A DNA stretch of 32,000 nucleotides from an uncultured archaeon. GTDB taxonomy: Archaea; Asgardarchaeota; Thorarchaeia; Thorarchaeales; Thorarchaeaceae. Position 1 is the stretch's first letter, and each line of letters opens with the position of its first letter. Position numbers and translations under genes: made by a program. The stretch is taken from assembly GCA_964648855.1 (NCBI GenBank), contig CAZYLT010000002.1:30001-62000 (forward strand). The letters are read 5' to 3'. The notes below the pieces were generated by a model that saw nothing but the letters and a program-made list of their open reading frames with translations, was not told the DNA's origin and made no database searches. This document shows, in pieces, positions 1 through 16,185 of this stretch.

Positions 1-234
1 ATCAATTGGTCGATGAGAATAGGAAAACAACAAAGCTTCTACTGTGATGCATGTACTCTGGTAAACTCAACATGTTCCTGATGATATTGCAGAGGTTGCA
101 TAATTATCTGGCACACCTGTTTCTATAAGAAAACCCTCATTCACAGGAGCTACCCACTCAGCCTGCGGTTGACATGTTGACCCTTTTTATGCCCGTCCTA
201 ATGGACAAACTGCCGGTTTCATTAAGAATGCGGT

Positions 235-480
235 TCCTCTATCTGCACATGCGTCAGAATCCAGCTATCCAAAAACGGCAAGCAGGTGACCGCTTTTATC
301 CCAGGCGACGGCGGCCTCAAGTATATTGACGAACACGACGAGGTCATCATCGAGGGAATCGGTGGAGCCACAGGCGGAGCAATGGGTGATCTGCCGGGTG
401 TCCGGTTCAAAGTGGTGAAGGTAAACGGTGTGGGCTTAGACTCGCTCATCTACGGACGGGCTGAAAAGCCAATCAGGTAG
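235..480 (+). pseudogene. rps12: 5'-truncated 3' part of ribosomal protein uS12 (relic 1)
   Basis: In frame from 250: [76 protein letters not shown], the archaeal uS12 C-terminal half. 235-249 reads SSICT, a degenerate SAIRK. No uS12 N-terminal half upstream within the window. Confidence 0.92.
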
Positions 481-653
481 CCTGGTTATCAATTCAAGTA
501 TTTCATGGCCAGAACAATATGTATGAGCATAAATTCTGTTGTCCGACTATCAGTGTATGAAAAAGTTTCTTGACTGCTTGATAATAGGAGAGTCTCTCTC
601 GCTTCAATATACGAGGAAGTTTAGTTCCCTTAGTAGTTGACATGCATTTGATT

Positions 654-1145
654 TTAACGAGATGTGATGCGTTCTATGATTTTGTGCCCATGGAGTATCA
701 AGCCTAGAAGCGATAGAATACCCCCTGCTATAGTTAAACGGGTATTGAAACCAGTCTTGTCTATTACAATATCCAGCTCGAGATAGTCATCGGTCTTGGC
801 TGTAAAAACAAATGCATAGATATCGGGGGCAGAAATGTCTATCACCTCATTGAAGGATGTCAAATTCTCCTGGACAAGAATCGGTTCAATGATGGAGAGG
901 GACTGGTTCTGCCCCACCGTCTTGTTTGCATCTTCGCCGTAAACAAAGTACAGTGTAAAGCTACCATTTCCGCGCCCGATCTCAAGCTTCACATGAATAT
1001 CCCTATCTGTTGCAAAAATGACTCCGGCCGGGTTTCCCTCTTCCACATGCAGAGTTCTGCTCTCTATGTTCCTTCCGGCAACAATAGATGACAAAAGCGC
1101 AACCAGTCCAATGGTGAGGAGTATTTTTCCAAGTCTTGTGGACAC
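654..1145 (-). CDS. Membrane-anchored hypothetical protein (N- and C-terminal hydrophobic helices), last gene of the ABC operon
   Basis: ORF 654..1187. Likely start GTG at 1145 after a GGAGGTG SD that overlaps the permease end. Two TM segments flank a beta-rich domain. Confidence 0.7.
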   Translation of the reverse strand: MSTRLGKILLTIGLVALLSSIVAGRNIESRTLHVEEGNPAGVIFATDRDIHVKLEIGRGNGSFTLYFVYGEDANKTVGQNQSLSIIEPILVQENLTSFNEVIDISAPDIYAFVFTAKTDDYLELDIVIDKTGFNTRLTIAGGILSLLGLILHGHKIIERITSR

Positions 1146-1149
1146 CCTT

Positions 1150-1929
1150 TCACACCTCCGCTCTTTTGAAGAGATACAGGCTTGCAATGAACAGAGATAT
1201 TGAGAACCCTAATGCTGTAACCAGCCCCAGAAATACATCTCCTGAAGATGCTGCGCCAGGCAGATCCCGGAGGTGTTCTGTCGCCGCCCGTAGTGGATTC
1301 ATAACTGAGAGTAATAGCGGTGACACATCTGGGCTCCCGAGAAAGAGATTCACTATCAACCAAAAACCGATGCCAAAGAGAGATGCAATCGAGAGGCGTT
1401 TGAAGAAGACAGCTATTACTGCACATACTGCCGCCTGAAGTGCAACCGTCACCCACAGGGAAACAAGTGTAAGACTCAACTCGTAAACAGAAGGAAATCC
1501 GGGATATACGGAAACCACGGCAAACAGAAATGCACCTGAGAGCGTCCCAGCTGGTATTAGAATCGCAAACAAAGTTTTGTTCAATAATACTGACGTTCGT
1601 CTGATAGGATAGGTGATTAATGACCTCATGTATCCGTCTTCGAAGGGTTTTGCAATGGAGAGAGCAGCTAGTAAGGGCACTAAGATTGCCAGCCATGATG
1701 AAAAGACTCCCACCCCATAGAAGATTCTACTAGGAATCAATCCATCCAAGATGATGTTGATTCTGTCAATTTGTCCAACCCCAAATGGCATTGCGGTCCA
1801 ACCACCCGTTGTGTTCCAAACGATTACAAAGAAGAAGATGGCAACAAGTCCCTCAAGCATGGGAAACCGATAGGTGATATTGAGTTCAATGCGTGCCAGA
1901 CGAATGACGTTACTCAGTCTGTTCTTCAT
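1150..1929 (-). CDS. ABC-2 type transporter permease
   Basis: About 6 TM helices and motif FEDGYMRSLITYPIRRTSVLLNK typical of ABC-2 permeases. ATGA overlap with the ATPase. Confidence 0.88.
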   Translation of the reverse strand: MKNRLSNVIRLARIELNITYRFPMLEGLVAIFFFVIVWNTTGGWTAMPFGVGQIDRINIILDGLIPSRIFYGVGVFSSWLAILVPLLAALSIAKPFEDGYMRSLITYPIRRTSVLLNKTLFAILIPAGTLSGAFLFAVVSVYPGFPSVYELSLTLVSLWVTVALQAAVCAVIAVFFKRLSIASLFGIGFWLIVNLFLGSPDVSPLLLSVMNPLRAATEHLRDLPGAASSGDVFLGLVTALGFSISLFIASLYLFKRAEV

Positions 1930-2894
1930 GTGATCACATCCCAGAAGGCGTCCTCCAGAGTTGCAGCCCGCTCCATGCTGTATAATTCTACGCTCAACGA
2001 CTGTGCTGTTGCCTGTATCTTGCCACGGACCTTTGTTGAATCACCCGTGACTGTGATTGAGACTGTATTAGGGCCTTGACTTCTCACACTGGTTACGCCT
2101 GTAATCTCCCGTAACTTAGATACTATCTTACTTGAGTCAGAGCACAAGATACGATATCGATTGCCGGTGTGCTTCCTAATGACTTCTAGTGTTTTGCCTT
2201 GCTCGACTATCTTTCCACGATGTATGAAGGCAACATGGGTGCAGGCCTTTTCCAGTTCTGAGAGAATGTGTGATGATATCATAAATGAAACCCCTGATTC
2301 TCTATGCAACTGCACAATCTGGTTCAGAATCTCCTCCCGCCCCGGTACATCCAAATTAGCCGTTGGCTCATCCAAGAAAACCAGTTCTCCATCAGCCGCG
2401 AGGGCGAGAGCAATGCCCATTCGTTGTCGCATCCCTGCTGAGAAGTCACCTATCTTGCGATGGGCAGCATGGCCTAGCCCCACCATGGAGAGCAACCGAT
2501 TAGGATCCTTGTCACTCTCATAGATTCCAATAACTTCAGATAGGTATTGGTGCGCACTCATATGAACAGGTAGGGAAAGATTCTCGTGCAATACGCCGAC
2601 CCGTTTCCGTATCTCCAATGACTTTTTTTGAGCATCAAGGCCGAATACATGAGCCGAGCCAGCAGTTGGTTGGATTAGCCCGAGGAGAATACTGATCAAA
2701 GTGGTTTTTCCTGCTCCATTCGGCCCTATCAATCCAAAGATGCCAGGTTCAATCGCTAGATCCAATCCATCAAGAGCTCTAATGGAACCGAAGTTTTTGA
2801 CAATTCCGTGAATATCTATGAGAATAGTCCCAACCAATGAAGGGTTTTCCTCCTGTTTATCAGTACAAATGAAATCAGTGTCACTCAAATCCAT
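1926..2894 (-). CDS. ABC exporter ATP-binding subunit
   Basis: Walker A GPNGAGKTT, signature FSAGMRQR, Walker B VFLDEPT, H-loop SSH. Confidence 0.95.
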   Translation of the reverse strand: MDLSDTDFICTDKQEENPSLVGTILIDIHGIVKNFGSIRALDGLDLAIEPGIFGLIGPNGAGKTTLISILLGLIQPTAGSAHVFGLDAQKKSLEIRKRVGVLHENLSLPVHMSAHQYLSEVIGIYESDKDPNRLLSMVGLGHAAHRKIGDFSAGMRQRMGIALALAADGELVFLDEPTANLDVPGREEILNQIVQLHRESGVSFMISSHILSELEKACTHVAFIHRGKIVEQGKTLEVIRKHTGNRYRILCSDSSKIVSKLREITGVTSVRSQGPNTVSITVTGDSTKVRGKIQATAQSLSVELYSMERAATLEDAFWDVIT

Positions 2895-2912
2895 GTTACT
2901 TACTCCACGACC

Positions 2913-3467
2913 TCACGGACCTGTTATATGTGCTTCCAAAGTTACATCTCCTACATACCATCCCAAGTAGTAAACAGATACCCTGTACTTTGTATAGACG
3001 TCGTTGTATATATCGTAGTAATAACGATATGTTCCAAGGGACGTCTTTATTTCATCGTATCTAGAATCACCTTGACATCGGAGAGATACAGAGCCCAAAG
3101 TATGACCGGCTATAAGGTCAACATATCCATAGTGTTTCTCTTGATGGAAATAGTTACTGCCTGTTGTATAATATCCCGTCACACTACAATAGAAATACCC
3201 ACTCATTCCACTTGCATCATCGGAATCGAATTTGTTGTCGGCTAATGAGAACTCTTGTGCTGGAATGAACTCAGCATTTATTTCATACAAGAAACTACTG
3301 GGGCCAATGTAATGAGTTTGCGTTATTAGCGATCCATTTACAAGCTGAGCTTCAATAGAAAGCTCAAATTGGTTGTCCTCAGTAATTCTTGTTGAGCCAC
3401 TTAAGTATACAGGAAACACAAATATCGTTAATATGAGAAATGAAAATAGTAGTATTTTGAACCTCAA
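2913..3467 (-). CDS. Secreted Tyr-rich hypothetical protein (paralog of 3616..4182)
   Basis: N-terminal signal/TM peptide. Shares A.F.P..EF...D...D.D..SG.SG.F...VTGYY..G..YF..E.H with the neighbouring gene. Confidence 0.78.
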   Translation of the reverse strand: MRFKILLFSFLILTIFVFPVYLSGSTRITEDNQFELSIEAQLVNGSLITQTHYIGPSSFLYEINAEFIPAQEFSLADNKFDSDDASGMSGYFYCSVTGYYTTGSNYFHQEKHYGYVDLIAGHTLGSVSLRCQGDSRYDEIKTSLGTYRYYYDIYNDVYTKYRVSVYYLGWYVGDVTLEAHITGP

Positions 3468-3615
3468 CTTACTTTCCTCCCAGCATTCTAATTAATGCCT
3501 TAAAAAGGCGTATAGTTGTTTCGCTATATAAATTCACCGAGAGTTTTTGGCTAGACGACAATCAGTAATAGATAAGAAGGGTCATATTGAATGACCCTGT
3601 CCTGTTCGATAGATT

Positions 3616-4182
3616 TCAAGGAGGTTCTACATATGCCAGCAGAAAAATATCTCCAACATAGATGAATCCATAATAGATGTCAGCGCTCATAGTTGTTCGT
3701 GCATAGTCGGTTACTGCGTCATAATAAGTCCAACTGCCCACTTCGTCATATGTATCATCATATTTTCCACTCCTACATCCGACAACGAGATTTGTTGCAC
3801 TATGGCCCGGTGCCAACGACATAACGGCCTCGTGGTATTCCTTGTAAAAGTAATGGTAACCATTTCTATAATAGCCTGTTACAATTACATTGAAGGAACC
3901 TGATGAACCACTTTCTGGATCTTCGTCAGAAGTTGAATCACTAACTATGAATTCTTTATTTGGAGTGAATAGCGCATCCACATAAACTTTGGAAGACTCA
4001 ACTCCCACTGTTTTCAAATTATAATGCATCTTGCCATCATCTATTTTGCAAGAGATAATTATAGAAACTTTCTCAATATGATTATTGCTTTGTACAAAAG
4101 GAAAGACCAAAGATGGCATGATAAAAAAGACAAATACTAGAAGAACTGATTGTTTTTTGGTTAACAGCATCTCTCCCATCAC
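3616..4182 (-). CDS. Secreted Tyr-rich hypothetical protein (paralog of 2913..3467)
   Basis: Signal-like N-terminus, collinear similarity to 2913..3467, AT-rich. Confidence 0.78.
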   Translation of the reverse strand: MMGEMLLTKKQSVLLVFVFFIMPSLVFPFVQSNNHIEKVSIIISCKIDDGKMHYNLKTVGVESSKVYVDALFTPNKEFIVSDSTSDEDPESGSSGSFNVIVTGYYRNGYHYFYKEYHEAVMSLAPGHSATNLVVGCRSGKYDDTYDEVGSWTYYDAVTDYARTTMSADIYYGFIYVGDIFLLAYVEPP

Positions 4183-4848
4183 CTAAACGTGGTTGAAAAC
4201 CACATCACAGTATTCTCCCCCATTATATTTAAACATTTATAGAAATACATTTCCAAATAAAAATTTGATGTAACCTAGATGTGCCGTACAATTGATTAGC
4301 CTTTTTGCATTGTAACAAGACGACATATTCCGACTTTCTTCCAATCTTTATGCTATTAAGAACAAGAGATTGTTAGCAGGTTTTGCTGAATAGCTATGAG
4401 ATAAAATCTCTCAACACCTCTTGACAAGTAATTATATCATAAATATCTCTCATTCTTGGTGGACCTTTATCTTCTGCTCATCAAAAGCAAATCTATTTTC
4501 ATTATACGGTTGATGGTATGACAAAAGGAGAACTCGAATACTTTGAGATACTATCCCTCAATTTACCAACTATGATATCCCTTTGTATCTGGATTATTTT
4601 TTCAATGCATCATAATCTAGGTACTCCAAAGCATATCTATTGACTCAACCTAACTATGCATTTCAGACGTTGAGTTCAATTCCTTTAGAGCTGATATCAA
4701 AGGGGATGATATTCATCGAGTGCATGGGCCCTCGCATCTTGACGATTCTCAACCGCCGTTCTACTGAGCCTTCAATTCTCTCGTACAATAGTTTGATAAT
4801 TTCATGACAGGCACGTTCAAGCTCAGAGGGACTATGCGATGAGATGCG

Positions 4849-5046
4849 AAAAACGGCAAGCAGGTGACTGCTTTCATCCCAGGCGACGGTGGACTAAAGT
4901 ACATAGATGGGCATGATGAAGTCATCATCGAGGGAATCGGTGGAGCAATGGGTGACCTGCCAGGCGTGCGTTTCAAAGTGGTGAAGGTGAACGGCGTCGG
5001 CCTTGAGTCTCTTATCTACGCTAGAGCGGAGAAGCCAATCAGGTAG
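4849..5046 (+). pseudogene. rps12: 5'-truncated 3' part of uS12 (relic 2) with a 12-nt in-frame deletion
   Basis: [65 protein letters not shown]. Homology starts abruptly at 4849. The deletion lies between GGAGC microrepeats. Confidence 0.92.
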
Positions 5047-5073
5047 AAGACCAGATGAATCACAGTTCACCGA

Positions 5074-5379
5074 CTATAGCCTGTCGTAATCTGTTGCGTC
5101 GATGATGATTGCCCGGACAGTGGTTGGCAGGGATTCCTCTGAATCTGGTTGTTGGTACATCATGGAACGTCTTGCCCCACGAGACAGGTAGTCCTCCAGT
5201 TCCTCCTCATTGAATAGGCCCACTTTTACGGCCCGCTTTGTACTACTCTCCTTCAATTTAAGAACCACATTTTCGCCATTCTTTCGCATCTCTTCGACCC
5301 GTCTGACTGCTTCCCGGATCTCTTCCCAGGTTGTATACTCCTTTCCATCAATCGCCTCTTCCACTTTCACTTTGACCAT
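5074..5379 (-). CDS. Small hypothetical protein, TTWEEIRE family (homolog of 14800..15111)
   Basis: 101 aa, aligns over most of its length with 14800..15111. AT-rich TATA-like element about 25-30 nt upstream of the ATG. Confidence 0.82.
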   Translation of the reverse strand: MVKVKVEEAIDGKEYTTWEEIREAVRRVEEMRKNGENVVLKLKESSTKRAVKVGLFNEEELEDYLSRGARRSMMYQQPDSEESLPTTVRAIIIDATDYDRL

Positions 5380-5638
5380 CCTAATCGAGAGTATGAGAAA
5401 GATAATAACTCTCTTTCCCTTTAGTAATCAATTCGCTGGTCCCACAGAAAAAGACCCTGCTAACTAGAGCACATTGAGATCGTATTCTAAAATAATCTGT
5501 AGAAGATACTAAAGCGCGTCGAAAGAATTATTGGTCCCGAAAATTATATCTTATTATCGTTATGAGGATGTGGAATTGGGCGTGATTAAAGATGGCACTC
5601 AGAACGGGCAATGCTCGCTCATTGATGGAGTTGATTGA

Positions 5639-6070
5639 ATGAAGCGAAAAGTGGAAATCTCTGCTGAAGAAATGGAAAAAAGAGCATACGGGTGGCTAGA
5701 GATTTCAGACCTCGGCAAAATACGTCTTCCATCAGAACTCATTCATGACTACAAATTGGAGGTCGGAGAATGGTTTCAAATACAAACAATAAATCAACCC
5801 ATAGGTAAAGCAATCGTTTTGCTTTGGAAAGTCCCAGAAACTGGACCGGGGTCAGAGGTTTATCCATGGGGTGGTTTCCTTTTTCCGGACGAAACTGTGA
5901 TGATACTCCTTCCTTTTATGCTATCACTGAACCTATTTCCGGGCGATAAGCTGCTCGTGATGAAGAAAACTCAAATTGCCGCGATTGATATCATACCGTT
6001 TTGGGCAAGCGGAGTATTCTATGATATTGCCAAAAAATCATCGAATATACCAACGTTTACCTGCCAATGA
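5639..6070 (+). CDS. AbrB/MraZ-like swapped-hairpin DNA-binding protein, probably two repeats
   Basis: YGWLEISDLGKIRLPSELIHDYKLEVGE and a second repeat ..LNLFPGDKLLVMK match the AbrB pattern. Confidence 0.65.
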   Translation: MKRKVEISAEEMEKRAYGWLEISDLGKIRLPSELIHDYKLEVGEWFQIQTINQPIGKAIVLLWKVPETGPGSEVYPWGGFLFPDETVMILLPFMLSLNLFPGDKLLVMKKTQIAAIDIIPFWASGVFYDIAKKSSNIPTFTCQ

Positions 6071-6205
6071 ACGCAGAATACGTGGATGCTAGCACCTTTG
6101 ACAAATTTTCGTTTCCAGTTCATTCCAAAAGCTTTAAACAATGATAGCACCGTGCCGAATTGATACGCTTTGAAATTTAGTACCGAGCTTAACAGTACAT
6201 ATGCG

Positions 6206-6274
6206 GTCGTCAAAACAAACGGCACCACATTAGACTTGTTGATATGCGGCAGAGCCGAGAAGCCAATCAGATAG
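6206..6274 (+). pseudogene. rps12: Degenerate extreme 3' end of uS12 (relic 3), directly abutting rps7
   Basis: [22 protein letters not shown] versus [22 protein letters not shown]. The stop TAG at 6272-6274 overlaps the AGGTG SD of rps7, as in the canonical rps12-rps7 junction. Confidence 0.85.
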
Positions 6275-6283
6275 GTGTTAGAG

Positions 6284-6973
6284 ATGTCAGAAGACGAGAA
6301 GACAGAGGCAGAAACCGAGGTTCCTGAGGAAGAGGATGCCGTTGAGGAAGAGAAAGAACCTGAGAAGCCACATATTCTCCCTGATTTACTATTATTCAAC
6401 AAATGGGACTCTACCGCAGTGGAGTTGAAAGACCCCGGGCTTGTGAGATATATCTCCTTAAAACCCGTGATTATTCCACACACTTCTGGTAGACATGCCC
6501 GAAAACGGTTCCATAAGAGCGATGTTCCCATCGTGGAGCGATTCGTTAACAAACTGTTGAATGCCGGTACTCGGAAAGAGAAGAGGAATCGTGCCGGACG
6601 TAATGCTGGTAAGAAGACAATGATCATCGGTACGTTGAAGCGAGCCTTTGAGATGATTGATTACCGAACAGGACTCAATCCTATCCAAGTACTCGTCACT
6701 GCTATCGAGAATGCTGCTCCAGCAGAGGAGACCACTAGGATATCCTATGGTGGTATGGCTTATCCGCGTTCGGTGGATGTTGCACCGCAGCGAAGGATAG
6801 ACCTAGCACTGAAGTATCTGTCAGTGGCAGCAGCACGAAACTCTCACAAGAGCGCCAAGACTTTTGAGGAGTGCATTGTAGACGAACTACTGCTCGCTTA
6901 CAAGAATGACTCAGGTAGTTTCGCTATCTCCAGAAAGGAAGAGCGCGAGAGAGTGGCACGCTCAGCACGATAA
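6284..6973 (+). CDS. rps7: 30S ribosomal protein uS7, with an acidic N-terminal extension
   Basis: PHTSGRH..RFHKSDVPIVER, NPIQVLVTAIENAAP.EETTRI, VDVAPQRRID, KEERERVARSAR. ATG 6284 is preferred over GTG 6275 by SD spacing. Confidence 0.97.
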   Translation: MSEDEKTEAETEVPEEEDAVEEEKEPEKPHILPDLLLFNKWDSTAVELKDPGLVRYISLKPVIIPHTSGRHARKRFHKSDVPIVERFVNKLLNAGTRKEKRNRAGRNAGKKTMIIGTLKRAFEMIDYRTGLNPIQVLVTAIENAAPAEETTRISYGGMAYPRSVDVAPQRRIDLALKYLSVAAARNSHKSAKTFEECIVDELLLAYKNDSGSFAISRKEERERVARSAR

Positions 6974-6983
6974 TCACAGTTGA

Positions 6984-7002
6984 GCACGGGTATTTCCCGT
7001 GC
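6984..7002 (+). terminator. Hairpin after rps7
   Basis: GCACGGG-tattt-CCCGTGC about 10 nt after the stop. Confidence 0.5.
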
Positions 7003-7119
7003 AATCATAATCTGATTTCTAGTCTATTATCTTAACATACTTTCGATTGTTTATCATAGGGCAAGACGGAGGCAAAAGACGAATAACTATGAACAACTCC
7101 ACGCAGAGCTTGAACTACA

Positions 7120-7656
7120 ATGACTAAACAAGCTCTTATCGCCTATGGAACACGATACGGCTCCACTGCAGAAGTAGCAGAACGCATTGGGGAAGCTCTC
7201 TCCGAAAAAGGTCTGACTGTAACAGTACTCAATACTAAAGAAGAGAGTGCGCCGACAAATCTTATTGATTTTGATCTCGTGATTGTAGGCAGTGGGATCC
7301 TTGCCGGGAGATGGACCAAAGAACCCATTGAGTTTTTGAAAGAAAACAAGAGTGTTCTGGCAGACAAGGATGTTGCTCTCTTTGTAGTATGTGCATATGC
7401 GGCTAATCCAAAAACGCGTGATGACGCCTTCCAGAATTACCTTGTGGATGTTGGAAGGGACCTGGATTCTATTACACCAATCTCTCTAGGATTCTTTGGC
7501 GGAGTCATAGATTTTAGTAAGTACAATTTCGCTGTCAGAGCTCTGATGAAACGGATGGTCAAGTCCACTACGGGCGATGAAGAGGTCTCCGAATTTATGG
7601 ATTTGCGGGACTGGGAGAAAATAGAAAGCTGGGCCAAGTCACTTGTTACAGAATAG
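7120..7656 (+). CDS. Flavodoxin-domain protein (HemG-like)
   Basis: YGTRYGSTAEVAERI FMN-binding loop, DLVIVGSGI, DLRDWEKIESWA. Confidence 0.9.
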   Translation: MTKQALIAYGTRYGSTAEVAERIGEALSEKGLTVTVLNTKEESAPTNLIDFDLVIVGSGILAGRWTKEPIEFLKENKSVLADKDVALFVVCAYAANPKTRDDAFQNYLVDVGRDLDSITPISLGFFGGVIDFSKYNFAVRALMKRMVKSTTGDEEVSEFMDLRDWEKIESWAKSLVTE

Positions 7657-7663
7657 CCAGCCC

Positions 7664-8116
7664 ATGCGGCATTCCAAAGAAACTCTCTTGAAACAATTCA
7701 AGCACAACTCGGATATGCCTGATTATGATCGCCTTGAGCGGGATGCCAAGAAGGATGTGGAAACTGCACTTGATATCTGGTCTGATATTTTACAACATAG
7801 AATCGAGGTCAATGTGCAGTGTACCTAAGCCAAGGGCTCTTGTGTCAAACCATGGGACTCGCCGGCGCCAATTCGGCTCTTGAATCAAACCTCAGACAAT
7901 CCTATTGAAACATGGGCATGGAATCGATCAAGAATCATAGGCGAACTCGAAGCTCAAAATCATCATCAATTAGCCAATCTCTATACTAGGTTCTATATGT
8001 CGTCTTGGACCCTCTTTCTCACCAAGTTCTCGGATCTCCAAGCCTTCAGAGAAGTTGTGCGTAGCGGTTATTACTTGCTACAAAGGTGTATCCAAGAGAT
8101 GAAACAACCCTCTTAA
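7664..8116 (+). pseudogene. Disrupted gene, possibly of nucleotidyltransferase-like fold
   Basis: The frame continues past TAA 7826-7828 as AKGSCVKPWDSP, resembling the hG-S start of minimal nucleotidyltransferases. It then shifts into the helical ORF 7880..8116. Confidence 0.45.
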
Positions 8117-8155
8117 TACAGGAGATGGTGCATCCTCTAGGAACGGAATGGGCAA

Positions 8156-9085
8156 ATGAAAGTCAACAGGAGAGCTTTGGCTTGGCTAGCAATCTTATTT
8201 ACAACGATTGTATGGGCATCATCTTTGATTCTTGCAAAGATTATCTATCCTACAATCACACCTATTCTCTTTGTGGCTCTTCGATATACTCTGGCTCTTC
8301 CATTCCTCTTTCTTCTACTCATCTTCAAGAAAGATGATGTCAAGGTCCCCCAGTCCACCAAATGGAGCGTCATAATAATTGTTGGTCTAGCTGGGCCATT
8401 TCTTTCACAAGTTCTTCAATACATAGGATTGAGTCTGACTTCTGCATCAGAAACTCTGCTCCTCCTAAATCTAAGTCCGGTCTTTGCCGTTATCCTTGCA
8501 GCACCTCTAATTGGCGAAGAAATCACTCTTCAAAAACTGGTTGGGTTGATACTGGCAGTTTCTGGAGCGACTCTTATTGTGATTGGAAATCTTGATTTTC
8601 AGATTGTTAGCTATGGCAGAATACTTGGAGATTTCATTATCGTAGTATCTACTCTTCTTTTTGCTATCAATGGCATTGCTGGAAAGGTCGCAATCAAGAC
8701 CTCCGGTTCGTTATCAGTAACTTTCTACAGCACGCTAGTGGCCGTCCCATTTATCTGGCTGTCTGCATTCTTACTAGAAGACATCACAATCCTATTTTCT
8801 ACTCCCATTTATGTCTGGATTATCATCTTCTGGGTCGCAATTGTGAACACCGTCATCGCATTTCTGTTCTATTACGAGTCCATGAAATACATCGAGGCAT
8901 CAAGAGTCCAGATAGCGTTGAGCCTAATCGCCGTCTGGGGTGTTATCATGTCATCTATCTTTCTTGGAGAATCAATCACCTTTCCACAGATATTTGGAGG
9001 CATTGCAACTATTCTTGGCGTGATAGTAGTCCAGCGCAGAGGACGTCAAGAACAAACCATACGACCTGTCCAACCTCCCTCATGA
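8156..9085 (+). CDS. DMT/EamA family transporter
   Basis: 10 TM helices in two EamA repeats (TIVWAS, ALRY, NLSPVFAVILA..IGE, FLGE). Confidence 0.93.
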   Translation: MKVNRRALAWLAILFTTIVWASSLILAKIIYPTITPILFVALRYTLALPFLFLLLIFKKDDVKVPQSTKWSVIIIVGLAGPFLSQVLQYIGLSLTSASETLLLLNLSPVFAVILAAPLIGEEITLQKLVGLILAVSGATLIVIGNLDFQIVSYGRILGDFIIVVSTLLFAINGIAGKVAIKTSGSLSVTFYSTLVAVPFIWLSAFLLEDITILFSTPIYVWIIIFWVAIVNTVIAFLFYYESMKYIEASRVQIALSLIAVWGVIMSSIFLGESITFPQIFGGIATILGVIVVQRRGRQEQTIRPVQPPS

Positions 9086-9641
9086 GCCTGTTTTTTTCCC
9101 TCTCGGTGGTAACAATTTGTGACCTATTTGCGTGACCCTGAAACGTGGCTTTGCATTATATACTAACCTTGTTCACTATTTCTTAGAAACAAAATGGCTC
9201 TAACATCCAACAACAGAGTTGTACACGAGAAGAAGAACACCACAAGAAAGGTCCAGTCAATTGATGCGCTGACCTATGCATACCAATACACTGTGAGGTG
9301 AAAACAAAAATGGCACTGGCTAAGGAAACCAAAACTAAGTATCCCAAGAAATCCCAATCTACAGAGGCAATCACTCAAGCTTACTTCAGGAGATAGAATC
9401 CAATGATTCGTCACAAGATATTCGCTGATATATCTGAAGAGTTACTCTCTGAATTATCCCACAATGATGACGAATTAGCTGTCGAAGAAGTGCTTGCGTT
9501 GGAAGCAACGTGAGCACATTCCTCCTTTTTCCAACTATCTGTCTAATATCACATATCCAATTTCTTATTGCATAAGTATAATCTTTCTGTGGATATTCGA
9601 CATGCTTATTGAAGGAGTCTAGTAAGAACAGATCGAATCCA

Positions 9642-10388
9642 ATGAAAATTGAGTCAATTAGATGCCTCATCTTCGATATTGGAGGCACTATAAACGGTCC
9701 ACGTTTTGATGGAGTTGACTTTCTACGCTATTTCTTAAAAGAGGCTGACTTGAGAAAAGCAAGCAATCTGCCTGCACACAGACTTAGAGCGGCACAAGAG
9801 AAAGCATCGTCTTGGCTAAATGATTACATGATTGAGAATAATGTTCCCCCAAAGTGGGAGATGATATTCCCTAAAAAGATTCGTTATTCCGGTATCATTT
9901 TGGAATCGTTGCGGATTGAAGAGCCCCCTGAACGCCTTGCTAGCGCATATGATAGGAAGCTGGAGTTTGCAGTAGAGGAGATTGGGGCGGTCATGGCAGA
10001 GAACTGCAAGAGCGTATTAGAAACCCTCTCTACTCGTGGTTATCATCTTGGAATCGCCTCAAACAGATTTGGTGACCCGTCCGGCTATTTCAGACGCCAT
10101 AGCCTAGAATCGTTCTTTGAAGTTATTCAGTATTCCTTGGTACCTGGCTATCGAAAACCCTCACCCTATATGCTACTTGAAGTGGCTGAAGAACTGTCAA
10201 TCAATCCTTTGAAATGTGCTTATGTCGGCGACACAATCAAGTATGACATCAAAGCCACAAAACGGGCGGGAATGCTACCCATTCTTACCACTGAATTTCA
10301 GCAGTCTTCTGACGGCTTCTATTCTGATGAATGGTTGACGGTTTCAAACCTCTCTGATTTGATTACAATCTTCCAATCGGGAAAATAG
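9642..10388 (+). CDS. HAD-superfamily hydrolase
   Basis: Motif I FDIGGTI, motif II IASN, motif III KPSP, motif IV YVGDTIKYD. Confidence 0.88.
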   Translation: MKIESIRCLIFDIGGTINGPRFDGVDFLRYFLKEADLRKASNLPAHRLRAAQEKASSWLNDYMIENNVPPKWEMIFPKKIRYSGIILESLRIEEPPERLASAYDRKLEFAVEEIGAVMAENCKSVLETLSTRGYHLGIASNRFGDPSGYFRRHSLESFFEVIQYSLVPGYRKPSPYMLLEVAEELSINPLKCAYVGDTIKYDIKATKRAGMLPILTTEFQQSSDGFYSDEWLTVSNLSDLITIFQSGK

Positions 10389-10679
10389 AGGGCCCAATCA
10401 CGAAACCGACCGTGGTGGCTGTGCTCTACGTGTCGCCACGTAGACCATGTCAGAGTCAGTAATCAGGCCCAGTAGCATACTGCTTCTTGTTTGATAAATG
10501 TACGTTCTGGTCGAATTGAATCGTCTTTGCGCATTTTCTTCTGGAAGTGGGGGGGTGACAACACGCAATCTCCATTCATAACACCCGCAAAGAAGTGCTT
10601 GGCGGATACAGAAGCAATTCTTTTCCTCTAGTGCGCCTATGCCCCTCCTATAAGCCATTTGGCTAAACGAACCTGTCGA

Positions 10680-10742
10680 AATTATTAAAAGCATCGCACA
10701 ACGTGGCTTCAAAAAGCCTTGACCACTCCTAGTGGTCAGGCC
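10680..10742 (+). promoter_or_regulatory. Putative tuf promoter and 5'-UTR hairpin
   Basis: ATTATTAAAA at 10681, followed by stem GCCT-TGACCACT cct AGTGGTCA-GGC before the TTG start. Confidence 0.4.
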
Positions 10743-10766
10743 TTCATAAAAACGTGGTGAATTAGA

Positions 10767-12083
10767 TTGAGTAAGAAAGATAAAGAACACCTCAATCTGG
10801 TCGTCATAGGGCACGTCGACCACGGTAAAAGCACTATGACGGGCAGATTGTTGTACGAGACAGGTGCAGTAGACGAGAGGACATTCCAAGCACACAAGGC
10901 TGAAGCTGAGAAACTTGGTCGTCCATCCTGGGCTTGGGCGTTCGCCCTTGACAGGCTTAAAGAAGAACGAGAGCGCGGTCTAACCATTGACATTGCGTTC
11001 TTCAAATTCTTGACTGACAAGTACTACTACACCATTATTGACGCTCCTGGACACAAAGACTTCATTAAGAACATGATTACTGGAGCATCGCAGGCTGACG
11101 TAGCTCTGCTTGTTGTTTCAGCCAAGAAGGGAGAATTTGAGGCTGGAATCGGCCCTGGCGGCCAGACCAAAGAACATGCTTACCTTGCAAAGACACTCGG
11201 TGTCGATAACCTGATTGTGTGTATCAACAAGATGGACGACGAGAGCGTTGATTACAGTGAAGATCGTTACAAAGAGGTCAAGGAAGAGGTAATGGGCTTC
11301 CTGAAGAACATCGGATTCAAGACAGATCAAGTGGAATTCATTCCCACTTCAGCTCTATCCGCTGCTAACCTCAAAGAACAAACTCCTGACTTGACTCCAT
11401 GGTACGAAGGAATCAGCCTTCTTGAGGCCCTGGACACTGTTGAGCTTCCTCCGAAGCCCATCGACAAACCACTGCGAATACCCATCAATGACGTCTACTC
11501 TATCAAGGGCGTTGGTACTGTTCCAGTTGGTCGTGTCGAAACTGGTGTCTTGAAGCCTGGAATGAAAGTCACATTCATGCCTCCCAATAAGACCGGTGAG
11601 GTCAAGACGGTTGAGATGCATCACGAGATGCTCGATGAGGCTGTACCTGGTGACAACATAGGCTTCAATGTGCGCGGAGTTGAACGGAAAGATCTTGGTC
11701 GCGGAGACGTTGCCGGACCTACTGACCAACCACCCACAGTCGCAGCAGACTACACGGGTCAAATCATGGTCATTCAGCATCCGACCGCTATCACTGTTGG
11801 TTACACACCGGTCATTCACGCTCACACTGCCCAGATAGCATGCAGGTTCGACGAGCTCCTGCAGAAGCTGGACCAGAGAACCGGTCAAGTCACACAGGAG
11901 AACCCTGACTTCGTGAAGCGCGGAGAGAGCATGATAGCAAAGCTAGTCCCTCTCAAGCCGATGGTGATAGAGCCGTACAAGGAACTCCCACAGCTCGGAC
12001 GCTTTGCGGTCCGGGATATGGGTATGACCGTCGCAGTCGGTGTCGTGACAAAAGTTACACCTCGCGAACCAAGCAAGAAATAG
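10767..12083 (+). CDS. tuf: Translation elongation factor EF-1 alpha (intact)
   Basis: [55 protein letters not shown]. Confidence 0.99.
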   Translation: MSKKDKEHLNLVVIGHVDHGKSTMTGRLLYETGAVDERTFQAHKAEAEKLGRPSWAWAFALDRLKEERERGLTIDIAFFKFLTDKYYYTIIDAPGHKDFIKNMITGASQADVALLVVSAKKGEFEAGIGPGGQTKEHAYLAKTLGVDNLIVCINKMDDESVDYSEDRYKEVKEEVMGFLKNIGFKTDQVEFIPTSALSAANLKEQTPDLTPWYEGISLLEALDTVELPPKPIDKPLRIPINDVYSIKGVGTVPVGRVETGVLKPGMKVTFMPPNKTGEVKTVEMHHEMLDEAVPGDNIGFNVRGVERKDLGRGDVAGPTDQPPTVAADYTGQIMVIQHPTAITVGYTPVIHAHTAQIACRFDELLQKLDQRTGQVTQENPDFVKRGESMIAKLVPLKPMVIEPYKELPQLGRFAVRDMGMTVAVGVVTKVTPREPSKK

Positions 12084-12100
12084 TATAGTAGATGTAATTT

Positions 12101-12133
12101 GGGTCCATGAAGTGGACCCCTATCTATTTTTTT
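12101..12133 (+). terminator. tuf terminator (hairpin plus T-tract)
   Basis: GGGTCCA-tgaag-TGGACCC followed by TATCTATTTTTTT. Confidence 0.65.
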
Positions 12134-12552
12134 AATCATATTCCAGAAGTACAATGTTGAATCTACAAACTCAAAATGGATAGGAGAAATAGTTACTAGC
12201 TCGACAACTCGGAAATATGCCGACAAGGACACCTTGCTAAATTTCACTGAGAAGATTCTAGGACTTGAATTCCTTCTATAATATTTGTTAGCAATCCCTC
12301 TCAATAGTATTTCTACATTGTATTCCACATATAAGACATCTCTAGTAAACGGCTCTGTAGAAAAAGTCCGCGGGGTTGGAGTAGAGAAGACTGAAATAGC
12401 CATTGAATCGACACTCGAACCTCATATTCTGACATTTCAAGATTATGACAAGACCCGATTTAGCATGTCGATGTGAATTATTCTACAGAGCCCTAGTAAA
12501 CTACATATAGAAAGGGTTTCCAATGGACTATTGATTCTAAGACTAGTTGTGA

Positions 12553-13137
12553 TTGGAGGAAAAAAGGATGCTACTTCAAGAATCAGTTATTGGTCTTGGG
12601 CCTGGTATTGCAATCATACTTCTCATTGTAGTAATTTTCCTATTGATAGTGCATTCAAAGAAATCCAAGCCTTCATCTGACTATGATTTAAAATCTGAAC
12701 GTTGGCTCAAAGAGGAATCTCCACTCACAACATCACATAAGACTGAATTAATCGAAGCAGTGCATATTGCACTGATGTTTCTGTTAACAATCCCCTTCTA
12801 TCTGTATGGTGGGAACATCCTTTATGGTTATATTCTCTTCTTATTACCCGATGAGCTTGTAGCTCTTGTAGTGCGAGCTGCCCTTTCAGTCCTAATTGTC
12901 GAGTTCTTTTTCAATTGGATTCCGTATCTGGTTTTTCATTTCAAACGATGGAGAACAAAAGGATTGTATATTCTCTTTTCGGGGATTTCCTTTGCAAGTC
13001 TAACATACTTCGTTCTGTCTCCCCAATACTTCGAGGGAGAGGCATTCATCGGAATGGGATTTATTTGGATTATCTGTGGTATCATTATACATCTTCTTTT
13101 CAATAGGATAGGATGGTACAACAAGAAGTCTAAATAA
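12553..13137 (+). CDS. Hypothetical membrane protein, about 5 TM helices (cargo)
   Basis: Multiple hydrophobic helices, AT-rich. Start may be ATG 12568. Confidence 0.75.
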   Translation: MEEKRMLLQESVIGLGPGIAIILLIVVIFLLIVHSKKSKPSSDYDLKSERWLKEESPLTTSHKTELIEAVHIALMFLLTIPFYLYGGNILYGYILFLLPDELVALVVRAALSVLIVEFFFNWIPYLVFHFKRWRTKGLYILFSGISFASLTYFVLSPQYFEGEAFIGMGFIWIICGIIIHLLFNRIGWYNKKSK

Positions 13138-13275
13138 TAGGAGTGCCAAACCTTGCTTCTCAAGGTCCTCTCAAGATTCAAGCCGCTTTGACAGTCTGAT
13201 TATCAAATACGAGTTTAAATAGAAAACTCCAATCTATACGTTTGAAATCCATAATTCGTAGGAGATGATACACAA

Positions 13276-13791
13276 ATGACGGACTGTAACGATTGGGTTC
13301 CAACTGCGTGGTCAGTGAGTAGGACTAATGTCACAGACACCTCTTTAGTAGTCAGCCAGACTTTGTACTGGAGTTCCACAAAAATGGAAACCCTTCAGGA
13401 GATGGGCGGTTTCTATCTGTACGAAATCCGCAGAAATGCAGATTACTGGGATTTCCTTCAACCTGGAGCTCTTTGTATATATTGTTTTATAGAAATTTCC
13501 ACTAACTTCCCAAATCCAGACCCTATCACATTTACGGAGGAAGAAGGTGCTGCAATTTCTGCTTGCTGTCTTCGCCTGCCAGATGATGAAGAAGCACAAG
13601 TGAATGTGCCTATTGATCAAATGGAATCAGGATACTATTATGCAAGTTTGAAGATGATTCGTCTTGAAAAGGACAAGCAATTCACCCTGTGGAGTGAATC
13701 AGAGTGGTGTTGTTCGTGGCTTTGGTGCAACTTTGGATCTCCGGATTGTTTCCAATCATGTACCATGACTACACAGACATTCACATCATAG
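13276..13791 (+). CDS. Cys/Trp-rich hypothetical protein (cargo)
   Basis: SD GGAGATGA, TATA-like TTTAAAT upstream, 10 Cys including CC pairs and a C-terminal cluster. Confidence 0.78.
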   Translation: MTDCNDWVPTAWSVSRTNVTDTSLVVSQTLYWSSTKMETLQEMGGFYLYEIRRNADYWDFLQPGALCIYCFIEISTNFPNPDPITFTEEEGAAISACCLRLPDDEEAQVNVPIDQMESGYYYASLKMIRLEKDKQFTLWSESEWCCSWLWCNFGSPDCFQSCTMTTQTFTS

Positions 13792-13804
13792 GAGGAGATA
13801 ATTT

Positions 13805-14470
13805 ATGAATAAGAAGATAGGTTCAATAGAGAAGGTTACAGAGGATTTGCAAAGACACGGGCGAGCAGCAATGGAAACTGACAAGGAAATTCTGAGGTTT
13901 GCTCGTGCACGTGACAACTATGTCCAAGTGACTTCCCGGATATATCCCAAGTCTATTTCTGAGCTTGAACAATATAGAACAACCTCACTGAAGCGCCTCG
14001 CTTCCTTGCCAGGAGGGTATCGACGGCATCATGCAGCTATCACTCTGAAAAAGATGATGCCTATGACTCGTGTAGATGAAATACAATCTACGGCTGGATT
14101 GGACGTATTCGGGATAAAAATCCAAGGCACACACGGTTTTATCACTATGTCCAAGTATCCAATAGACGTTTCTTGGATTACTGAAGCCGAAGAGGTGACG
14201 AGGAAAAACATGATTGAAACAGAAACCCTTGAAGAAGGAGAACGATTTTCCCTTATAGAGGGAGTGGTCGCTGTATACGTCAATGCAACACATGATGCAT
14301 TAGAAAAACTACTAGATGAGGATGACATATATCTAATAGATGTAGGGCCTCAAGAACACATGGATAACCTGGCGGTAGTATCTGCAGGTACAGAACATGA
14401 ATGGAAACCAGTATTGGGGCCACTGTTGGATATAGCTCATTACATCAATAAGCATTCAAATACTGAATAA
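13805..14470 (+). CDS. Hypothetical protein co-transcribed with 13276..13791 (cargo)
   Basis: AGGAGGAG SD at the upstream stop. 221-aa globular-looking ORF. Confidence 0.78.
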   Translation: MNKKIGSIEKVTEDLQRHGRAAMETDKEILRFARARDNYVQVTSRIYPKSISELEQYRTTSLKRLASLPGGYRRHHAAITLKKMMPMTRVDEIQSTAGLDVFGIKIQGTHGFITMSKYPIDVSWITEAEEVTRKNMIETETLEEGERFSLIEGVVAVYVNATHDALEKLLDEDDIYLIDVGPQEHMDNLAVVSAGTEHEWKPVLGPLLDIAHYINKHSNTE

Positions 14471-14562
14471 TGAATCAAATTTCGGCAATTCCCTGCTATT
14501 TTCATACAGATGAAATCTAGAGTTTTGTGAATTGATAGGATATACCAAAATCATCACACATC

Positions 14563-14661
14563 CTCCCACAGTTGGGTCGCTTCGCAGTTCGTGACATGGG
14601 AATGACAGTAGCAGTTGGCGTTGTCACAAAGGTCACTCCTCGTGAGCCAGGCAAGAAATAA
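14563..14661 (+). pseudogene. tuf: EF-1alpha 3'-end relic A (last 32 codons)
   Basis: [32 protein letters not shown]. Not in the ORF track. Followed by hairpin GGGGC-cagagt-GCCCC and a T-rich tract. Confidence 0.93.
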
Positions 14662-14799
14662 ATCACATTGGGGCCAGAGTGCCCCTCTATCCTCTTTTCA
14701 TTTTCTGCATAATTCTGATTCAACAACTCATATGTATGTACTCACGGTAGGTACAGTCATCAGTGGCATGTGAGCACAATAGGGATTTCTCGACCTTGA

Positions 14800-15111
14800 T
14801 CACGGCTGTAAATCAAGAAACTTGGTACTGGCAATTCGTGCCTCGATTTCGGTGGGTAGTGGTGTTTCAGGGTCATCAGGATTGCGTTTCATACTTCTTC
14901 TGCTTATACCATTCAACCAATCCTGCAATTCCTTCTCATTCAGGATATTGGTGATAATTGCCCGTTTTGAGCTCTTCTCTCCCAACCTGAGCATTACTTC
15001 TTCTCCCTGCTCCCGCCTTTGCTCTACTTCAGCAAGCATCTCGCGTATCTCCTCCCATGTGGTAGCAGTTTCAGAGAAGAACCAGTCCTCATATTCAGGG
15101 TCGTTAAGCAT
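14800..15111 (-). CDS. Small hypothetical protein, TTWEEIRE family (homolog of 5074..5379)
   Basis: TTWEEIRE..VE..R..GE.V.L.L.E.S.KRA......NE.EL.D.L....RRSM....PD..E..LPT...A.I is shared with 5074..5379. Confidence 0.82.
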   Translation of the reverse strand: MLNDPEYEDWFFSETATTWEEIREMLAEVEQRREQGEEVMLRLGEKSSKRAIITNILNEKELQDWLNGISRRSMKRNPDDPETPLPTEIEARIASTKFLDLQP

Positions 15112-15160
15112 CTTGCTATATCATTCACGCTCCGGCTAGATAAACATAACCTATCCGATT

Positions 15161-15567
15161 GAGTCGAACGGAAAAATCTTGGTCGCGGAGACGTGGCTGG
15201 TCCGACCGATAAGCCGCCTACCGTCGCTGCTGATTACACGGGCCAGATCATGGTCATCCAGCATCCAACGGCAATAACCGTGGGATACACTCCCGTTATC
15301 CATGCTCATACAGCCCAGATTGCATGCAGGTTCGATGAGCTTCTACAAAAGCTTGACCAGCGGACTGGTCAGGTCACACAGGAGAACCCTGACTTCGTGA
15401 AGCGCGGAGAGAGCATGATAGCAAAGCTAGTCCCTCTCAAGCCGATGGTGATAGAGCCGTACAAGGAGCTCCCGCAGCTCGGGCGCTTTGCTGTCCGTGA
15501 CATGGGGATGACCGTCGCAGTCGGTGTTGTGACGAAAGTTACACCTCGCGAACCAAGCAAGAAATAG
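15161..15567 (+). pseudogene. tuf: EF-1alpha 3'-end relic B (407 nt, matches 11677-12083)
   Basis: Gap-free alignment with only two amino-acid changes (D>N, Q>K). Followed by its own hairpin and T-rich terminator at 15584-15623. Confidence 0.95.
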
Positions 15568-16185
15568 TTTAACTCATAGTACCAGAACCGGGTCCAAACG
15601 GCCCGCGTTCTATTCTTATTTTATATCACACATTGATTGCCTCACACTGAGAAATAGAAAATCCATAAGAAATCAGTTCCATGTATAACTTGAGAGAAGC
15701 AGGTAGTTGGGCATATATCTAGTGGTCCTATACGGTGGGGTTGTCTTATTGACGCTGTACTTGAGCCGTGATAAGAGAGTGAAGCACTCCACAGATCACT
15801 CATTTGAAATGGAACAAATGGGGCAAGATGCATTAGAAAAGAAGGCAAGTTATTTGTAGGAATATATTGATGCTACAAGAAAATTACACCATGACTAATT
15901 CTTGGTTAACCAGAAAGGCTCTGAACCTTACTCAGCAATCAATCTCTAAAATGTTGTATAATTCCGGTATCTGTTTATGACATGTCAACTCTACTACAAA
16001 TCTCTCTCAGCTACCTTTAGTTTATGTTCTCCCATCTCTAGACCACTAACTTGAAGAATATACTCGGATATAGGAACTCTACTAGTCTGCGATTTGCGGG
16101 ATTGTACGGTATTGTCCAATCCCGGTGTTCATAGTCAATTCGAAGGAATATTATTCGCATATCAGCATCCAATATGTGACCACTG

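Follow-up and report, generated by a model that had tools for sequence, protein, structure and literature searches.

The 32,000-nucleotide stretch analysed here (the window; positions 30001-62000 of contig C2 in an uncultured Thorarchaeaceae genome, GCA_964648855.1, hereafter G000) holds two genes for a protein of about 100 residues that we call TTW after its TTWEEIRE motif, each standing right behind a displaced 3' end of an essential gene, rps12 in one case and tuf in the other. We propose, at a rough probability of 0.5, that the arrays of displaced ends and cargo at these two genes grow by homology-anchored insertion of segments from related strains and that the donor's TTW allele is carried along, as the first passenger of each segment and not as the engine of insertion. 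This reading is favoured because the displaced ends diverge from the live ones by synonymous changes, one of them can be matched to a donor, the borders of the units vary, no recombinase is found, and there are arrays that lack TTW altogether.

Specifically, the displaced ends differ from the live ends almost only synonymously and have therefore evolved as working genes in other lineages. Relic r1 of the rps12 array (C2:23567-23766, upstream of the window) is identical at 195 of 200 positions (97.5%) to the live rps12 end of the related strain G076, and the cargo behind it is, from C2:24403 onward, 98-99% identical to G076 over 5 kb, with core flanks at 85.6%. Judged by these identities, unit 2 of the rps12 array is a recently acquired, contiguous segment of a G076-like chromosome that starts inside rps12. 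The 98% block begins 270 nt beyond the start codon of the TTW gene of this unit (TTW2). TTW2 itself is a mosaic that matches G076 at 88% over its first ~100 nt and at 52-70% over the remainder, and this deeply diverged allele has flanks on both sides with 97-99% identity to a relative. It follows from the start of the block and from the mosaic that TTW lies outside the recently moved segment and that crossovers fall inside TTW. The left borders of the rps12 relics are found at about 0, +12, +58 and +215 nt and those of the tuf relics at nt 911 and nt 1219 of the gene, a variation that does not fit one fixed crossover site; the relics that bound the units are 35-407 nt long and diverge over their full length, with no identical core shared among them. 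Further, searches of G000, which is 94.6% complete, gave no match to PF00589 (Phage_integrase) or PF00239 (Resolvase), not even an Xer-type recombinase, under conditions in which control genomes did give matches, and no tyrosine or serine recombinase was found in any of the islands examined.

Under the proposed scheme, one TTW paralog would have become fixed directly behind rps12 and another behind tuf in the genus of G000 (g1), each founding insertion duplicating the 3' end of its host gene, and the block made of gene 3' end plus TTW would since then have been the repeat unit of arrays that grow without a site-specific recombinase. DNA of a related strain that starts inside the conserved 3' end of rps12 or tuf would enter by homologous pairing, either through a single crossover of a circle (Campbell type) or through one homologous end combined with one illegitimate join. 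The incoming 3' end would restore the live gene, and the resident one, together with whatever trails it, would be pushed downstream; such insertions should be viable only if the anchor includes the gene end. TTW would be the first passenger and part of the homology arm, not a recombinase, and it would stand behind almost every displaced end because it comes first after rps12 and tuf in g1 donors, so each segment brings its own allele. Consistent with this scheme, the same duplication of gene ends is seen without TTW at mvhD and rpoA'' and in some of the rps12 and tuf units themselves (islands 481-4848 and 12084-14562 of the window and the tuf island of G076). An earlier note on this DNA had suggested that TTW might be the hallmark gene of the mobile unit, and this stands insofar as both arrays repeat a unit made of TTW and a gene 3' end, but not insofar as units and whole arrays do without TTW and the recently moved block leaves it out.

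The TTW genes and the layers of the two arrays

The rps12-type TTW gene of the window (TTW3; 5074..5379, minus strand, 101 aa) is the innermost TTW copy of the rps12 array and is orthologous to the gene that lies between rps12 and rps7 in a related strain (the JGI strain), while the tuf-type gene (14800..15111, minus strand, 103 aa) is the sole gene of a minimal cassette between two tuf relics. The two proteins share 38 of 77 residues (49%; BLASTP E 3e-23) and both carry the motifs TTWEEIRE, GE.V.L.L.E.S.KRA, NE.EL.D.L, RRSM and LPT, which bears out the earlier description of them as clear, diverged homologs. Both are convergent with the displaced end before them, as had also been noted: the stop of the rps12-type gene lies 27 nt past the stop of the rps12 relic at 4849-5046 and that of the tuf-type gene 139 nt past the stop of the tuf relic at 14563-14660. 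The tuf-type gene starts 49 nt before the 407-nt tuf relic and is, again as claimed, the one credible gene in the 500-bp unit between the relics at 14563-14660 and 15161-15567; a plus-strand open reading frame at 14822-15139 was rejected as a real gene, conservation and the ratio of nonsynonymous to synonymous substitution rates (dN/dS) matching the minus frame.

Exactly four TTW copies are found in G000, all on one contig and each 8-190 nt from a 3' copy of rps12 or tuf, and every copy found in three related strains likewise lies within 190 nt of such a copy. Three of the four G000 genes are convergent with the gene end; the fourth, TTW1, is inverted and stands 170 nt from rps12, the convergent spacing of TTW to rps12 being tight otherwise (8-27 nt). 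These copies are not independent of one another, since the TTW genes of the genus derive from about two founding events, at rps12 and at tuf, and from later duplications of blocks. All of them are open reading frames, comparisons of eight alleles in pairs give a dN/dS of 0.10-0.27 as long as dS is not saturated, and this, together with a confident AlphaFold (AF2) model built from 14 sequences (pLDDT 83, pTM 0.74), makes TTW a genuine gene under purifying selection.

Read from the live gene (C2:16705-17148, upstream of the window), the rps12 array consists of live rps12, an 87-bp element, TTW1 (plus strand), cargo 1, relic r1, TTW2 (minus strand), cargo 2, relic r2, a second 87-bp element, cargo 3, relic r3, TTW3 (minus strand), a 143-aa gene, relic r4 and rps7. 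Repeat analysis places the ends of the rps12 3' copies in the window at 480, 5046 and 6274. The first of these closes relic r2 (250..480, plus strand), which is followed by the 87-bp element and not by a TTW gene. The second closes r3 (4849..5046, plus strand), 198 nt with a 12-nt deletion, and the third r4 (6230..6274, plus strand), the oldest relic, whose 45 nt abut the start of rps7 (6275..6973, plus strand), the original downstream neighbour of rps12. Because it is also present in both relatives, r4 marks the ancestral rps12-rps7 junction. Between r2 and r3 lies cargo island 3 (481..4848), with an ABC ATPase, an ABC-2 permease and secreted paralogs and without TTW; the 143-aa gene (5639..6070, plus strand) is divergent from TTW3, is kept beside TTW in the JGI strain, is missing in G076 and belongs to no Pfam family.

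At the tuf locus, the live gene (EF-1alpha; 10767..12083, plus strand, 438 aa) is followed by island A (12084..14562), which holds three genes of unknown family and no TTW and is missing in both relatives. The island is closed by a 98-nt tuf 3' relic (14563..14660, plus strand) that is 96% identical to the live tuf end of G076 and 79% to the live gene of G000. Then come the TTW gene, a 49-nt AT-rich spacer that runs from its start codon to the next relic and may hold the TTW promoter (15112..15160, minus strand), and the 407-nt relic (15161..15567, plus strand; tuf nt 911-1317), which differs from live tuf in 1 of 124 residues at 87% nucleotide identity. The junction of TTW with this relic is kept in G076, the JGI strain and locus L066.

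The relatives show simpler states at both loci. At rps12, the JGI strain has rps12, TTW, the 143-aa gene, a 35-nt relic and rps7, and G076 has rps12, TTW, cargo 2, a relic and rps7; at tuf, the JGI strain has tuf and TTW followed by a 52-nt tuf fragment, G076 has tuf, a 4.8-kb island, TTW and the 407-nt relic, and a fourth strain has tuf, an island, one TTW gene (TTW_b), a 406-nt relic and a second TTW gene (TTW_a). The oldest layer at both rps12 and tuf was therefore gene end, TTW, old gene end, and later islands entered between the live gene and TTW.

Several further observations concern the arrays. The 87-bp element (520..606, plus strand) is non-coding and has two copies in the genome, the other at C2:17188-17274, in both cases 40 nt past an rps12 stop; their identity of 96.6% exceeds that of the adjoining coding copies, and part of the element stands before a TTW gene in locus L068. 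The 5-kb cargo block at C2:24380-29372, 6 kb upstream of the window, is 98.3% identical to L065:14606-19598, the flanking core being 85.6% identical, and it encodes a 675-aa SBBP/TSP3-like protein and an ABC exporter; these values indicate a recent transfer between species-level lineages. A 112-nt direct repeat (C2:24083-24194 and 26851-26962, 93% identical) flanks the 675-aa cargo gene and consists of the first 25 nt of TTW2 plus the 87 nt upstream of them, that is, a displaced TTW 5' end, and the same pair is present in G076. Contigs of four runs were placed on positions 1-16000 of the window, and their joints are explained by paralogous copies upstream of the window. In run X4 (2021 sample), the summed contig depth over this region is ~8-11 for the islands and the TTW-tuf cassette vs. 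25-46 for the rps7-tuf core, which suggests, as far as contig depths go, that strains lacking the islands or differing in them co-exist.

The TTW protein and its relatives

The AF2 model of TTW is a beta-alpha-beta-beta-alpha(-alpha)-beta sandwich. Residues W18, G35, L61 and R70 are invariant and E19, R22, V28, E29, E60 and I92 nearly so; no Cys, His or Tyr is conserved across the family, and the isoelectric point is 4.4-5.1 in nine of ten members. Sequence searches of Pfam, PHROGs, PADLOC, NCBIfam and PDB gave no significant match, the matches to Imm1, RUN, CARD8, Csa5 and RpoF being sub-threshold (E 0.001 or weaker, and under the curated cut-off where the library sets one). Structure searches (PDB by Foldseek, VIA-wide, ESM Atlas and BFVD) returned nothing over noise, and a protein-atlas feature search returned no usable match. 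The best structural matches reach Z <= 5.2 (a designed binder), with GIY-YIG domains at Z 3.2-3.3, in the noise; a weak, recurrent likeness to the little-finger domain of Y-family polymerases was set aside because it reflects the common beta-alpha-beta-beta-alpha-beta topology alone. No nuclease, recombinase or DNA-binding motif is found in TTW by Pfam and NCBIfam, including their helix-turn-helix (HTH) families, or among its conserved residues, and neither an HTH nor a winged helix is seen in the AF2 model.

The absence of a recognisable catalytic motif reported earlier is borne out by the family searches and the conserved residues, whereas the accompanying suggestion that TTW may be a recombination or directionality factor, or a DNA-binding protein, is unsupported, and unlikely for a protein that is acidic, conserves neither Cys nor His and matches no known family or fold. 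A directionality factor of the Xis type in particular fits poorly with the acidic isoelectric point and the missing HTH or winged helix, and no cognate integrase was found in the 94.6%-complete genome or in the islands examined. Going by charge, size and fold, TTW may instead be a module that binds proteins, and less probably one that binds DNA or acts as an enzyme. As a family it is new and unnamed.

Its distribution is narrow. A search of 5.8 billion clusters returned 12 proteins, all Thorarchaeota-like, and an exhaustive hidden Markov model search added three distant small homologs. Six-frame searches found TTW in 28 of 400 Asgard genomes, all of one family and distributed over four genera (2/2 genomes of g1, 23/28 of its sister genus g12, 2/17 of the more distant g13 and 1/7 of g16); the whole-phylum search gave no member beyond one family of Thorarchaeota, and pattern scans of viral and metagenome contigs gave no relatives. 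Rps12 and tuf stand without an adjoining TTW gene in 16 of the 17 genera of the class, three of which carry TTW homologs elsewhere.

In g12, most homologs lie in conserved synteny without duplicated gene ends, in one group (group A) between a gene for a 190-aa protein (p190) and TFB-PSTK-tRNA(Sec), in a second behind a gene for a leucine-rich repeat (LRR) protein. At L046:8477-10353 and the syntenic g12 loci, TFB, a KTI12/PSTK-like kinase and tRNA-Sec are clustered beside the group A gene, and at the corresponding TFB site G000 has two tandem TFB paralogs (C6:52157-54323). The gap between p190 and TFB in G000 was searched for a TTW remnant and held none; the family therefore changes position between genera. 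The link to truncated gene ends that the earlier note expected of TTW homologs accordingly holds only in part: all g1 copies lie at gene ends and two of the three g13 matches at tRNA relics, but no g12 match lies near rps12 or tuf, and most g12 homologs, with their stable p190-TTW-TFB-PSTK and LRR contexts, have no such link.

Some loci outside g1 do combine a TTW-like gene with duplications or insertions. At L100:8208-12861 (genome G067, g13), two islands stand after tRNA-Phe, one SBP-like and the other with TPR and CN-hydrolase genes; a copy of the tRNA 3' end, 29-77 nt long, closes each of them, neither has an integrase, and the TTW-like gene comes directly after the last relic. A degenerate TTW-like gene is the first gene after a tRNA-type 3' relic at L104 (g13), and at L045 and L055 the TTW-like gene's own 3' end (34-36 nt) is duplicated around an inserted island. 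The distant homolog P0017 is the first gene of a 2.9-kb block found in two otherwise unrelated contigs (L011:9918-12853 and L012:1754-4689), behind a NurA-HerA-Mre11-Rad50 operon in one and a metallo-beta-lactamase-fold gene in the other. At L098:7998-9668 (G039, g12), a 408-aa open reading frame has inserted into a TTW-like gene and split it; from its N-terminal sequence only, this frame has the look of an IS200/IS605-type TnpB/OrfB. Finally, the metagenomic protein P0015 (450 aa) consists of six tandem ~65-residue repeats, each opening with a THLTWEELREAILEY helix that resembles the N-terminal helix of TTW; it was not treated as a homolog, only the repeated TWEELREA helix being in common, and the likeness, limited to ~30 residues, is probably not homology.

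Weighing an active role for TTW

Alternatively, a recoded gene 3' end plus TTW might form a minimal cassette that needs no integrase, with TTW as its active or selfish signature gene. The TTW protein would favour the cassette's insertion or retention, for example as a recombination-directing accessory, a new homing factor or a protein of the addiction or immunity type, and the cassette would seed hot spots which then collect cargo. We consider this possible but rather unlikely, and a number of observations that weigh against a mere passenger are the ones that speak for it. At both founding insertions, which were separate, TTW came in the same place and orientation, as the only cargo at tuf and the first cargo at rps12, and a random passenger would not predict its recurrence behind two translation genes. 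A ~0.9-kb unit of tuf end plus TTW, with TTW as its sole gene, is tandemly stacked in another strain (L066/L067) in the order TTW, relic, TTW. The gene-end relics decay, yet every stacked allele is intact and under purifying selection, and TTW2 is deeply diverged between nearly identical flanks. Among 87 genomes of the class, the 3' duplications of rps12 and tuf are confined to g1, the genus that has TTW at these genes, and the passenger reading leaves this unexplained. Two of three g13 matches stand directly behind tRNA 3'-end relics, and P0017 lies 83 nt from the edge of its block, which is 99.7% identical in the two contexts. Duplicated TTW gene ends are also enriched at island junctions: a direct repeat spans the TTW gene end at 3 of 32 loci outside g1 vs. 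3 of 500 random open reading frames (Fisher p 0.0035, one fixed criterion), a comparison that is indicative only, as the controls come from a different genome, G000. In addition, no circular or excised form of the units was seen among the assembled contigs of the source samples.

An active TTW is opposed, however, by its acidic charge and the lack of any nuclease, recombinase or DNA-binding signature or fold match, by the units and whole arrays that have no TTW, by the recently moved 5-kb cargo block that leaves TTW out, by the stable synteny of most g12 homologs, by the small number of founding events in g1 (about two) and by the inverted copy, which shows that orientation is not essential. 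In its most far-reaching form, in which the recoded gene end plus TTW is a minimal integrase-free mobile cassette of Asgard archaea that parasitises essential genes (rps12, tuf and tRNAs), with TTW as a new fold class that drives insertion or retention before the hot spot captures cargo, the idea is unlikely. We continue to favour homology-anchored insertion with TTW as first passenger.

TTW might also act on its neighbours, binding or chaperoning S12 or EF-1alpha or, as a convergent transcription unit, modulating the rps12 and tuf 3' ends, and selection would then hold it in position. Separate paralogs are indeed kept behind rps12 and tuf throughout g1, the convergent spacing at rps12 is tight, the acidic TTW stands beside a very basic ribosomal protein, and the group A homologs of g12 also adjoin an information-processing gene, TFB. 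Yet one copy is inverted and 170 nt away from rps12, most g12 homologs lie away from translation genes, TTW is missing next to rps12 and tuf in nearly all genera of the class (16 of 17), genes in convergent orientation are not co-transcribed, and there is no sequence or fold similarity to known factors, which together make such a role quite improbable; a complex prediction of S12 with TTW scored 0.00 and gave no verdict, counting neither for nor against binding. Least probable of all is that the islands belong to the classical site-specific integrative elements and are moved in trans by an integrase encoded on a virus or on a contig missing from the assembly, with TTW as an excisionase-like accessory near attL: tandem accretion at a gene 3' end with a small junction gene does resemble known integrative arrays, the g13 copies stand beside tRNA 3'-end repeats, which are the usual att sites, and an integrase could be absent from an assembly that is 94.6% complete, but no tyrosine or serine recombinase was found in the genome or in any island examined, the borders and lengths of the relics vary (35 to 407 nt), the relics diverge throughout without a shared identical core, and TTW is acidic and lacks an HTH or winged helix.

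Related systems and arrays without TTW

Among described processes, C-terminal displacement in Rhs and type VI secretion system (T6SS) loci comes closest (PMC5361080). For the effector-immunity arrays of Rhs, contact-dependent inhibition (CDI) and T6SS loci, homology-facilitated illegitimate recombination was proposed (Kirchberger et al. 2017, PMC5361080, citing Jackson et al. 2009 on rhs), and the complex arrays are then exchanged by ordinary homologous recombination (PMC5361080). As in the arrays described here, modules come in at an anchor that is conserved and lies upstream; the old 3' end and a small companion gene are shifted downstream, which leaves strings of orphan 3' ends, each with a small gene, and there is no integrase. 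In those systems, however, the displaced ends code for toxin domains that differ from one another, and the small gene runs in the same direction and confers immunity, whereas here the ends encode the same housekeeping protein, with synonymous changes only, the small gene is convergent, there is no toxin, and the host genes, rps12 and tuf, are essential genes of an Asgard archaeon. TTW was also considered as an immunity protein of a polymorphic toxin and rejected, the Pfam Imm1 match being not significant (E 0.052, 14.7 bits vs. a cut-off of 22.4).

In Campbell-type single crossover and homology-facilitated illegitimate recombination, a gene-end anchor yields an intact gene plus a displaced partial copy (PMC3240628, PMC5361080). 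The variable borders and the mosaic identity of the two copies are shared with the arrays here, although these processes are known mainly from laboratory constructs and bacterial transformation. Further features expected of such homology-anchored arrays are also found, in that the duplicated anchor is a diverged homolog from another lineage and is contiguous with the cargo in the donor (r1 and G076), and no dedicated recombinase was found alongside the variable borders. Two papers on Asgard mobile elements (PMC8813620, PMC11529989) describe integrase- or tRNA-linked elements and not stacking behind translation genes with a recurrent small open reading frame. The process that TTW marks differs from known displacement arrays in the kind of host gene and is not covered in these papers. 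Even as a mere passenger, TTW remains a lineage-restricted, unnamed family and a clean marker of integrase-free stacking of foreign genes behind Asgard translation genes; an active TTW would be the first protein component of a gene-capture system that works without an integrase.

Other known elements bear a more partial likeness. Integrative and conjugative elements (ICEs) and cis-mobilisable elements (CIMEs) accrete in tandem at the 3' ends of protein or tRNA genes, as streptococcal ICEs do at fda, rpsI and rpmG, and such arrays need a tyrosine or serine integrase, short att cores and a fixed crossover point. Their elements are likewise separated by copies of the target-gene 3' end with a small accessory gene at the junction, but no integrase is found here and the borders vary. 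Free-standing homing-endonuclease inserts (fungal mitochondrial atp6 and cox) bring a replacement 3' end and leave the old one as a relic, and the minimal tuf cassette has the same make-up, that is, gene, foreign recoded 3' end, single mobile reading frame and displaced native 3' end. Unlike homing endonucleases, however, TTW is acidic, has only ~100 residues and carries no GIY-YIG, HNH, LAGLIDADG or PD-(D/E)xK motif. Integron gene cassettes were rejected, as no tyrosine recombinase was found in the genome and the units are bounded by 35-407-nt gene 3' ends and not by attC-type sites.

Elsewhere in G000, end duplications are found where TTW is missing. The 5' end of rpoA'' is duplicated. At the mvhD/flpD array (C4:172778-179141, outside the window), displaced 3' ends form a series of three copies with polarised decay, made up of the live mvhD gene (178731-179141, minus strand) and two near-full 3' copies (174583-174957 and 172778-173149), and among the genes of the islands are a PIN/antitoxin-like pair and a GNAT gene, whereas TTW and an integrase are both missing. 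Live mvhD and relic 1 share 77% nucleotide and 93% amino acid identity, and the older relic 2 has lost Cys residues.

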